A stretch of DNA of 40,441 nt, from positions 1 to 40,441 of IMG/VR virus record IMGVR_UViG_2531839530_000005; one strand, written 5' to 3'. Both the position numbers and the translations under genes were made by a program. The DNA is from a virus. Its lineage: Duplodnaviria > Heunggongvirae > Uroviricota > Caudoviricetes. This document shows positions 1,398 to 2,371 of the stretch, in pieces (position 1 is the stretch's first letter; each line of letters begins with the position of its first letter). The notes below the pieces were generated by a model. The model worked only from the letters and a program-made list of their open reading frames with translations. It ran no database searches and was not told where the DNA came from.

Positions 1398-1952
1398 TCA
1401 TTTATCTCCCACCGGAAACCTCTTATACAAAGTCGATATGCCAACATCATAGATGATCGCTACCTTCAGGCGAGGAACTCCTGATGCAATTAATCGTCCG
1501 GCCTGTGCCCATTGTTCTGGTGTAAGTTTGGGACGACGTCCACCAATTCGTCCCTGTGCGCGAGCAGCTTCCAGTCCAGCTTTTGTTCGTTCAACAATCA
1601 GTTCTCGTTCCATTTCAGCCAGGGCCCCCATCACATGAAAGAAAAAACGCCCCATCGGTGTGCTGGTATCAATAGCATCCGTCAGGCTGCGAAAATTAAC
1701 GCCACGTTCGCGCAACTCCTCAACCAGAATGACCAGATGCCGCATACTACGCCCCAGCCGATCCAGCTTCCAGACAACCAGAGTGTCACCTGCCGATAAT
1801 GTCCTGAGCAGTTTTTTCAGTCCCGGCCTTTCGGACTTTGTACCGCTTATCTTGTCTTCAAAAATCAGCTCGCATCCTGCACAGTTCAACGCATTACGTT
1901 GTAGATCGGTATTCTGGTCATTTGTTGATACGCGTACATAGCCAATAAGCAT
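1398..1952 (-). CDS. pin: Serine DNA invertase of the Pin/Gin/Hin family
   Basis: N-terminal catalytic motif MLIGYVRVSTNDQ and C-terminal HTH (GVPRLKVAIIYDVGISTLYKRF); start taken at internal Met. Confidence 0.85.
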   Translation of the reverse strand: MLIGYVRVSTNDQNTDLQRNALNCAGCELIFEDKISGTKSERPGLKKLLRTLSAGDTLVVWKLDRLGRSMRHLVILVEELRERGVNFRSLTDAIDTSTPMGRFFFHVMGALAEMERELIVERTKAGLEAARAQGRIGGRRPKLTPEQWAQAGRLIASGVPRLKVAIIYDVGISTLYKRFPVGDK

Positions 1953-1978
1953 GGTAGATCTCCCTGACAAAAGCAGGA

Positions 1979-2371
1979 ATGATGCCATTTGCTCGTTATT
2001 TCTGCATTTTCATAAACGTTGGTTTGGGAGAAGCGGCTAAAAGGAATGTAGGGACAGGGGCGAATCAGATACCTGATATGGGTAGCTTCACGCTTTCTGT
2101 TTCAGGTACTGGATATCAAAAATTACCATCAGGTTTTATTCTTCAGTGGGGCTCAATCGGCGCACCAGGCATTGCACAGGATGTAGTAACCCATTTCCCG
2201 ATTGCATTTCCAAACAGATGTCTGCGTGTTTTGGTCTCACAAGACTACACACCAGATAGCGGGGATGTTGGTTATATTGCCTGTGCAGGTTTTAGTCCCG
2301 ACCCGGTTAAATTTATATCCAGAGCCAGTACTCCTGGCCTCGGCGCTTCATTTTTAGCGTTAGGCTGTTAA
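1979..2371 (+). CDS. Tail-fibre C-terminal variable cassette (silent, inverted relative to the main tail-fibre gene)
   Basis: ORF translation has tail-fibre tip character; begins at the crossover site (encodes FINVGLGE); opposite orientation to tail fibre 4285-5433. Confidence 0.4.
2007..2032. promoter_or_regulatory. Invertase crossover site (gix/pix/hix-like 26-bp dyad)
   Basis: TTTTCATAAACGTTGGTTTGGGAGAA, reverse complement TTCTCCCAAACCAACGTTTATGAAAA, matches the recalled TT..AAACC-NN-GGTTT..AA pattern; lies beside the invertase gene at the start of the tail-fibre cassette. Confidence 0.5.

Follow-up and report, generated by a model that had tools for sequence, protein, structure and literature searches.

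The stretch of viral DNA analysed here in its full length of 40,441 nucleotides (IMG/VR record IMGVR_UViG_2531839530_000005, positions 1 to 40,441; hereafter the window) contains yebW and pphA followed by a prophage of approximately 38.7 kb, whose tail-fibre end is formed by the invertase gene pin and the remains of an inversion switch. Very probably, these remains derive from an e14-type Pin inversion switch that was locked and decayed when the region 2494-5095 was replaced by DNA of an IntS-type prophage. The locus is the decayed form of a known system, the Pin fibre switch of the e14 type, and as such a commonplace relic and not a new system. An earlier note on this DNA had already suspected a decayed switch, and the 2.6-kb replacement provides the cause. 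The anatomy of the locus, its two junctions and its homologies could all be observed directly, as could the lack of inverted forms. The window is E. coli DNA and apparently corresponds to contig AQEE01000095.1 of GCA_000356185.2.

In the intact relatives of such a switch, the constant fibre N-terminus (Sc) ends at a 26-bp crossover site, a second, inverted site lies beside pin, and two opposed sets of a fibre tip and a tail-fibre assembly protein (Tfa) are placed in between. Inversion of this segment of about 1.9 kb by Pin swaps the receptor-binding tip. With Sv as the expressed and Sv' as the silent tip, the order Sc-site-Sv-tfa / tfa'-Sv'-site-pin is found in CS6L and in the isolated temperate phage vB_EcoM-611R5 (ON470588), which has both sites with 26 of 26 matching positions. 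At pphA, CS6L possesses pin, the site, Sv', tfa (147 amino acids), tfaE, the fibre gene with the partner site TTCTCCCAAACCAAGGTTTTCGAGAG, which is the partner site of e14, and genes for DUF2612, baseplate J, a 117-amino-acid protein and the spike; the lengths of the downstream genes are identical to those in the window. Of the two inverted 26-bp sites of a working switch the window retains one intact site and the relic of a half-site, and of the two opposed sets of tip and Tfa it retains Sv' and 34 of the 147 tfa' codons.

The invertase has the features of the Gin/Hin/Cin/Pin family. Its 184 amino acids comprise an N-terminal catalytic resolvase domain (Pfam Resolvase, PF00239, E 9e-52) and a C-terminal HTH_7 domain (PF02796, E 8e-11), and the nucleophile Ser9 is present in the context VRVS(9)TNDQ. 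The similarity extends over the full length, with 175 of 184 residues (95%) identical to PinE from e14 of E. coli K-12 and residues 1-181 aligning to the solved Mu Gin (3UJ3/4M6F; E 6e-93). These comparisons with e14 and Mu, which the earlier note had suggested, bear out its assignment of the gene as a Pin-type serine invertase. Serine recombinases of the Pin type depend on Fis and on an enhancer located inside the invertase gene. In the first 200 nucleotides of pin, where the enhancer of the family lies, there are 4 differences from e14 pinE (98% identity), and 41 in the whole 555 nucleotides.

The 26-bp site TTCTCCCAAACCAACGTTTATGAAAA is present once in the window, on the minus strand and 54 bp upstream of pin, with TT as its core (2019-2020). 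It is identical in 26 of 26 positions to the pin-proximal site of e14 in K-12, CS6L, TUM1880 and phage vB_EcoM-611R5, and its dyad-consensus score of 20/24 lies above the maximum of 17 obtained over 30 shuffles. The dyad of the gix/pix/hix type that had been proposed at this position is thus real and conserved. A search of the window with this site revealed no second match at up to 3 mismatches (0/100 shuffles matched), and a separate scan of the window found none at up to 9 mismatches. Other matches to the dyad consensus in the whole window (one at position 33067 with 16/24 and a few with 15/24) were dismissed, since all of them are within the shuffle range. A 15-nucleotide inverted repeat (2046-2060 and 5447-5461) was also rejected as a site, as it is conserved only through the homologous flanks in CS6L.

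An StfE-like open reading frame (ORF) runs through the intact site. It starts with a leader of 14 residues that is conserved with e14 StfE, including the ATG, and Sv', a gp53-like fibre C-terminus (Gp53-like_C, E 3.7e-15), begins at the core, at position 2020. A constructed Sc::Sv' fusion, joined at the core, turned up as a single uninterrupted gene in 17 other E. coli genomes, in 10 of them with at least 97% identity. Therefore, Sv' is a genuine alternative tip for the fibre of the window, and its former description as a silent, inverted tail-fibre C-terminal cassette is correct. The tfa' gene next to it aligns to the Tfa of CS6L up to codon 34, and PHROG family phrog_188 matches residues 1-35 of the ORF. 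In strain 300709 (NZ_CP025903.1), which is 99.9% identical to the window over the compared stretches except for about 6.9 kb of tail genes, the Prokaryotic Genome Annotation Pipeline (PGAP) lists tfa' as a 'tail fiber assembly protein, missing C-terminus'.

The extent of the replacement is apparent from three BLAST blocks. Positions 1-2493 resemble CS6L (96.7%), positions 2470-7667 resemble EH08-18-36 (98.4%), where the comparator is a prophage at argW with the integrase IntS, and positions 5093-8217 again resemble CS6L (97.8%). The first two blocks overlap at 2470-2493, and a three-way alignment of the window, the tfa gene of CS6L and the intS gene of EH08-18-36 was used to define the left junction. 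The 7-nucleotide microhomology TTGAAGT at the junction is part of a 24-nucleotide patch in which 20 of 24 positions are alike and which codes for WPDDAVEV and WPADAIEV. Judged from this alignment, the left join is a microhomology-mediated illegitimate one. It creates a fusion ORF of 73 amino acids (2393-2614), composed of 34 residues of Tfa' and 39 residues of IntS'. The IntS' part matches the C-terminus of the 385-amino-acid IntS in the argW prophages of TW10590 and EH08-18-36, PHROG integrase families match residues 27-71, and in 300709 it is annotated by PGAP as 'integrase, missing N-terminus'. A full-length IntS of about 385 amino acids beside a tRNA attachment site is not present in the window, which has only the last 40 or so codons and contains no tRNA genes. 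We rejected an assembly artefact as the source of the junction, as the junction also occurs in the complete genome of 300709, in the draft genome GCA_000356185.2 and apparently in one IMG/VR contig.

The right junction is located within the fibre gene 4285-5433. The first 114 codons of this gene are the Sc of intact switches, which establishes it as the cognate fibre gene, as had been supposed. Up to the core of the site, Sc differs from the CS6L fibre in one amino acid only (S/R), while residues 115-382 form a glycine-rich part. The DNA identity to CS6L and e14 ends after CTCTCGAAAACCT, directly before a G, which is the centre of the old site, so that Sc ends at the crossover site; the BLAST block common to CS6L starts at 5093. 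At this junction the sense strand is CTCTCGAAAACC TG GGAATGACAGAC in the window and CTCTCGAAAACC TT GGTTTGGGAGAA in CS6L and e14. The glycine-rich part has 97-99% identity with cassettes from prophages at argW, dusA, dacD, paoD and bio/ybhB, and in the prophages at these five attachment sites no pin was found beside the glycine-rich cassette. That it might be a true invertible cassette was rejected as well, because it is near an invertase in only two of 19 IMG/VR loci, one of them apparently with the architecture of the window and the other being the locus L028 described below.

What remains of the partner site at this junction matches the partner site of e14 and CS6L, TTCTCCCAAACC AA GGTTTTCGAGAG, in 20 of 26 positions (6 mismatches). 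The half on the side of Sc is perfect (12/12) and the half on the side of Sv matches in 7 of 12 positions. The core is changed from AA to CA (TT to TG in the sense strand), which is synonymous in Leu113, and the core dinucleotides of the two sites, TT at 2019-2020 and TG in the relic, are no longer identical. The dyad score of the relic, 16/24, is within the shuffle range. The earlier statement that the fibre gene has no convincing partner site holds in that there is no second intact, inverted site; it missed the relic of the half-site at 5083-5108.

Inversion between the two positions (2020-5095 inverted) would join the pin-side half-site to the start of the glycine-rich part and yield the junction TTTTCATAAACGT(T/G)GGAATGACAGAC. 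A search for this predicted junction in 5,426 complete E. coli genomes and in metagenome contigs gave no match. The architecture of the window itself occurs in one of these complete genomes and in one contig of the gene-position index. Its orientation is the same in the three records of it that were read (the window, 300709 and GCA_000356185.2), and the spacing in the IMG/VR locus L014 agrees with this. For the intact relatives, the alternative fusion Sc::Sv' is seen in the 17 genomes mentioned above. The earlier idea that Pin recombines with a degenerate or distant site finds no support, since the core of the relic is mismatched, its dyad score is 16/24 and the inversion junction was found nowhere.

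These data can be explained by the following scenario. A prophage at pphA with a full switch would have recombined with an EH08-like phage of the IntS/argW type. The left crossover would have been illegitimate, using the 7-nucleotide microhomology between tfa' and intS. The right crossover probably occurred by homologous recombination somewhere in the shared tail genes, as those of the donor are 98% identical and its fibre is already Sc::glycine-rich. This replacement would have cost the switch the greater part of tfa', its second tfa, the expressed Sv and, of the partner site, the half on the side of Sv. The tail of intS, the fragment of an S24 peptidase gene, an O-acetyltransferase gene, a 59-amino-acid ORF and the glycine-rich C-terminus, joined to Sc at the old core, would have been brought in. 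As the outcome, the fibre would be fixed as Sc::glycine-rich, with Pin, its site and one silent cassette left stranded, and without a partner in cis no productive inversion is to be expected. We infer both this order of events and the inability of Pin to use the relic. Since the architecture is so rare among complete genomes, the replacement is probably recent, and a recent event would explain why pin has not yet decayed. The fusion of Sc and the glycine-rich part was not created in the lineage of the window, because other prophages carry the same chimera: EH08-18-36 (argW) and E41 have the same chimeric fibre, and in KSC1031, FDAARGOS_1059 and LHM10-1 the identical junction follows an StfP N-terminus of the e14 type. 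We also considered whether pin and Sv' belong to a separate prophage located beside an IntS phage. This was rejected, since pin has the same distance from the same attachment site in CS6L and 611R5, which also have the same Sc and baseplate genes. The features of the locus and of the prophage ends are compiled in Table 1.

Table 1. Features of the decayed pin switch, the imported block and the prophage ends (positions in the window)
Feature	Position	Strand	Remarks
Left attachment-site repeat	1067-1092	no strand	Partial 3' end of sdsR/ryeA; prophage end nearest pin
pin, intact e14-type serine DNA invertase, 184 amino acids	1398-1952	-	Resolvase and HTH_7 domains; PinE/Gin alignment
StfE-like ORF, short leader and silent Sv' cassette	1979-2371	+	Pfam Gp53-like_C; PHROG tail-fibre families
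Intact 26-bp crossover site TTCTCCCAAACC AA CGTTTATGAAAA	2007-2032	-	Core 2019-2020; unique in window
tfa', first 34 codons of the Sv' tail-fibre assembly gene	2393-2493	+	Rest deleted
Left replacement junction, 7-nucleotide microhomology TTGAAGT	2487-2493	+	Common to tfa' and intS
intS', last ~40 codons of a P4/IntS-type tyrosine integrase	2494-2614	+	In frame with tfa'
S24/LexA-family peptidase gene fragment	2688-2885	-	Imported block; PGAP pseudogene in 300709
Acyltransferase_3 gene (O-antigen/O-acetyltransferase type), low-GC moron	3075-4094	+	Pfam Acyl_transf_3
59-amino-acid ORF	4106-4285	-	Always follows glycine-rich fibre domain; PHROG phrog_14370, function unknown
Glycine-rich C-terminal fibre part, residues 115-382	4285-5094	-	Pfam Gly_rich_2; imported, not invertible
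Partner-site relic GTCTGTCATTCC CA GGTTTTCGAGAG	5083-5108	+	Inverted relative to 2007-2032
Sc, constant fibre N-terminus, residues 1-114 (...TALENLG)	5095-5433	-	Matches CS6L fibre
Prophage integrase	38631-39707		
Right attachment-site repeat	39839-39864		Inside complete SdsR/RyeA gene

Several points weigh against the view that the switch is dead. Pin is undamaged and its 5' end with the enhancer region is well conserved, where decay might be expected if the enzyme had been useless for a long time. In the relic, 3,050 bp away, the Sc-side half-site is still perfect and properly inverted, and very few independent isolates with this architecture stand behind the lack of inverted junctions. Moreover, the related invertase Cin is reported to use weak quasi-sites at low frequency (Iida and Hiestand-Nauer 1987, as cited in PMC4134206). 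Judged from the sequence alone, a rare inversion is therefore conceivable. In that case, Pin would pair the site at 2007-2032 with the relic at 5083-5108, and the fibre would alternate between Sc::glycine-rich and Sc::gp53-like, with the acyltransferase block inverting too. Although the intact enzyme, the orientation of the relic with its exact Sc-side half-site and 20/26 matches to the e14 partner, and the existence of the in-frame Sc::Sv' product as a real fibre in 17 genomes would all suit such a low-frequency switch, we regard it as highly improbable. The Sv-side half-site is essentially random, the dyad score of the relic is reached by shuffled sequence, the diagnostic junction is absent from all genomes and metagenome contigs searched, and an inverted Sv' would be without its chaperone. 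In addition, the two cores are not the same; for Hin, one exchanged base in the core of a hix site is enough to prevent ligation in the inverted orientation (PMC4817059).

A different explanation for the intact pin would be that the gene is kept for an action in trans, on other prophages or on incoming Mu- or P1-like phages, or that the StfE-like ORF encodes a receptor-blocking defence protein. There are precedents for both. PinQ, PinR and PinE all invert the P segment of e14 in trans, and a chimeric StfE-type product blocks the adsorption of T2, as reported for PinQ/PinE and StfE2 of e14 (PMC12529663). For EC958, in which one prophage has a truncated invertase, inversion in trans has been inferred (PMC4134206). 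The conserved leader and ATG of the StfE-like ORF would also fit. A sensitive blastn search with pin found three places in total in 300709, the complete genome nearest to the window, and the two additional pin-like genes or fragments could be partners for an action in trans. Against this stands that no target was identified: megablast revealed neither a second close copy of pin-Sv'-tfa' nor one of the fibre gene including Sc in 300709. Furthermore, a scan of the plus strand found no promoter-like site before the StfE-like ORF, the sole match lying inside pin. A recent replacement, which left no time for decay, is the simplest reading and needs no function at all, and a role in trans or in defence appears improbable to us.

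A related question concerns the origin of the Sc::glycine-rich fusion. It is conceivable, although we consider it doubtful, that the fusion itself was made by an invertase acting on the partner site and a quasi-site within an AW1.7-type fibre gene that is not invertible, or else that Pin and the StfE-like ORF form a defence module. In the former case, Pin or a relative would have recombined at the core and captured a foreign receptor-binding domain, and a later synonymous change from TT to TG would have locked the product. In AW1.7 (dacD-side prophage; locus L009, about 4940-4990), the glycine-rich cassette is found behind a diverged but homologous Sc-like N-terminus. The boundary there, TTCTCACATACC TT GGAATGACAGAC, matches the best pix half-site in 10 of 12 positions and has a normal TT core. 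It could be either a quasi-site or a result of shared ancestry, and since the N-terminus of AW1.7 is homologous to Sc, the site-like sequence may simply be the latter. If the capture by an invertase were true, invertases would drive the capture of tail-fibre modules between unrelated prophages, beyond mere switching. If the second version were true, the stranded Pin and StfE-like ORF would represent a defence module retained by the host, of the PinQ/StfE2 type.

The expressed tip of the window and its 59-amino-acid companion are unrelated to the cassettes of the switch. The small ORF is annotated 3' of the glycine-rich fibre in TW10590, EH08-18-36, E41, KSC1031, LHM10-1, AW1.7 and FDAARGOS_1059, and it is present as an ORF in L028 also; from this position one may infer an assembly factor of the glycine-rich fibre domain. 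The acyltransferase gene matches PHROG families for O-acetyltransferases and O-antigen acetylases and has a guanine-cytosine (GC) content of 26-33%, compared to about 46-49% in its flanks. The S24 fragment precedes the acyltransferase gene also in TW10590, EH08-18-36, E41, KSC1031 and LHM10-1. The O-acetyltransferase moron accompanies the glycine-rich cassette and the S24 fragment in E41 and in the prophages at argW, paoD and bio/ybhB, whereas it is missing at dusA and dacD. Possibly, it serves to modify the O-antigen as a module tied to this particular fibre tip.

Some annotations are affected by these rearrangements. In RefSeq/PGAP, the Sc::glycine-rich fibre is treated as a truncated pseudogene ('missing C-terminus', in some cases named stfP) and its glycine-rich part is left unannotated. 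This concerns the loci L001 (9840-10184), L005/L006 (5990-6334), L007 (4990-5286) and L010 (4963-5259), in all of which the ORF is intact (367-387 amino acids). These pseudogene calls on the chimeric fibre are an annotation artefact. The Tfa'::IntS' ORF matches the PHROG family phrog_37801 over the whole 73-position profile (E 4e-56), i.e. an ORF created at the junction of a relic has become a 'protein family' in the PHROG library. The 130-amino-acid 'gp53-like protein' and the 73-amino-acid Tfa'::IntS' ORF should both be understood as relics.

The host of the switch is a prophage of the myovirus type, which is integrated in the sdsR/ryeA small RNA locus adjoining pphA. Its two attachment-site repeats form an imperfect direct repeat of 26 nucleotides, and the complete small RNA genes are located at 39835-39979 (SraC_RyeA and SdsR_RyeB in Rfam). 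The left junction of the prophage at pphA/sdsR is common to 228 complete E. coli genomes, and pinE adjoins it in most of them. The prophage copy of 300709 (L001) lacks the approximately 6.9 kb of tail and baseplate genes that correspond to about 5585-12500 in the window (DUF2612, baseplate J, spike and others), and is further decayed than the copy in the window. The prophage also encodes several small RNAs that exceed the Rfam gathering score, namely the C4 antisense RNA with an a1/b1 target, isrK, sok, DicF and the RalA antitoxin RNA (24394-24596, 26769-26939, 33346-33397 and 38095-38273).

The remnant carries little weight on its own, as its enzyme, its site and its logic are all familiar from the textbook inversion systems of e14, Mu and P1. 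Remnants of switches of this type are common in E. coli prophages. Its value lies in being a cleanly resolved case of the death of a switch, with both breakpoints mapped to the nucleotide. It is also an example of a prophage that traded a two-state fibre for a fixed one, which arrived together with an O-acetyltransferase moron.

Among known systems, CS6L and 611R5 share with the window the attachment site, the block pin-site-Sv'-tfa' (96.7%), Sc, and the genes for DUF2612, baseplate J and spike (97.8%). In contrast to the window, tfa, tfaE, Sv and a complete partner site are still present in them. It is pin itself that is damaged, with a frameshift in CS6L (L004, 7149-7702) and an annotated length of only 315 nucleotides in 611R5 (L012, 1447-1761). 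This mode of decay, with intact sites and a damaged invertase, is opposite to that of the window. A second decayed state of the switch at the same pphA locus is present in the IMG/VR locus L028 (UViG_2671180921_000030, 6632-9379). It has the Sc::glycine-rich junction with the TG core, and Sv', site and invertase are stranded beside pphA as well; the predicted inverted junction of this type was likewise absent in our searches. However, in L028 the replacement by the glycine-rich cassette and the small ORF is confined to Sv and tfa of the expressed set, the silent set still has its complete Tfa, and there is no acyltransferase or intS' insert. Its invertase is 55% identical to Pin and its site is CTCTCCCAAACC AA CCTTTCAAATAT.

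The switch of e14 (stfP-tfaP / tfaE-stfE-pinE) resembles that of the window in the invertase (95%), the pin-proximal site, the spacer between pin and the site, the leader of StfE, the end of Sc (...DIKSDGTVQTALENLG) and the Sc-side half-site, and in both prophages pin is located at the outer end. While e14 keeps both sites and both sets of cassettes and inverts 1,797 bp (PMC12529663), the window has lost half of the partner site along with one and a half sets of cassettes. The two also differ in the silent tip, which is gp53-like in the window and of the collar type in e14, and in the baseplate module, which is of the DUF2612/wedge type in the window and of the YmfQ type in e14. Gin with the G segment of Mu and Cin with the C segment of P1 belong to the same enzyme subfamily and follow the same principle, in which tips and chaperones are inverted behind a fibre N-terminus that stays constant, but they are functional two-site switches in active phages, whereas the window has a one-site remnant. 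Other orphan or damaged invertase loci of E. coli prophages are pinR of Rac, pinQ of Qin and Phi4 of EC958, where, as in the window, the invertase and the adjoining segment have ceased to work as a pair (PMC12529663; PMC4134206). For PinQ a target in trans has been demonstrated, whereas none was found for the Pin of the window. EC958 Phi4 combines intact sites with a truncated enzyme, whereas in the window the enzyme is intact and a site was lost.

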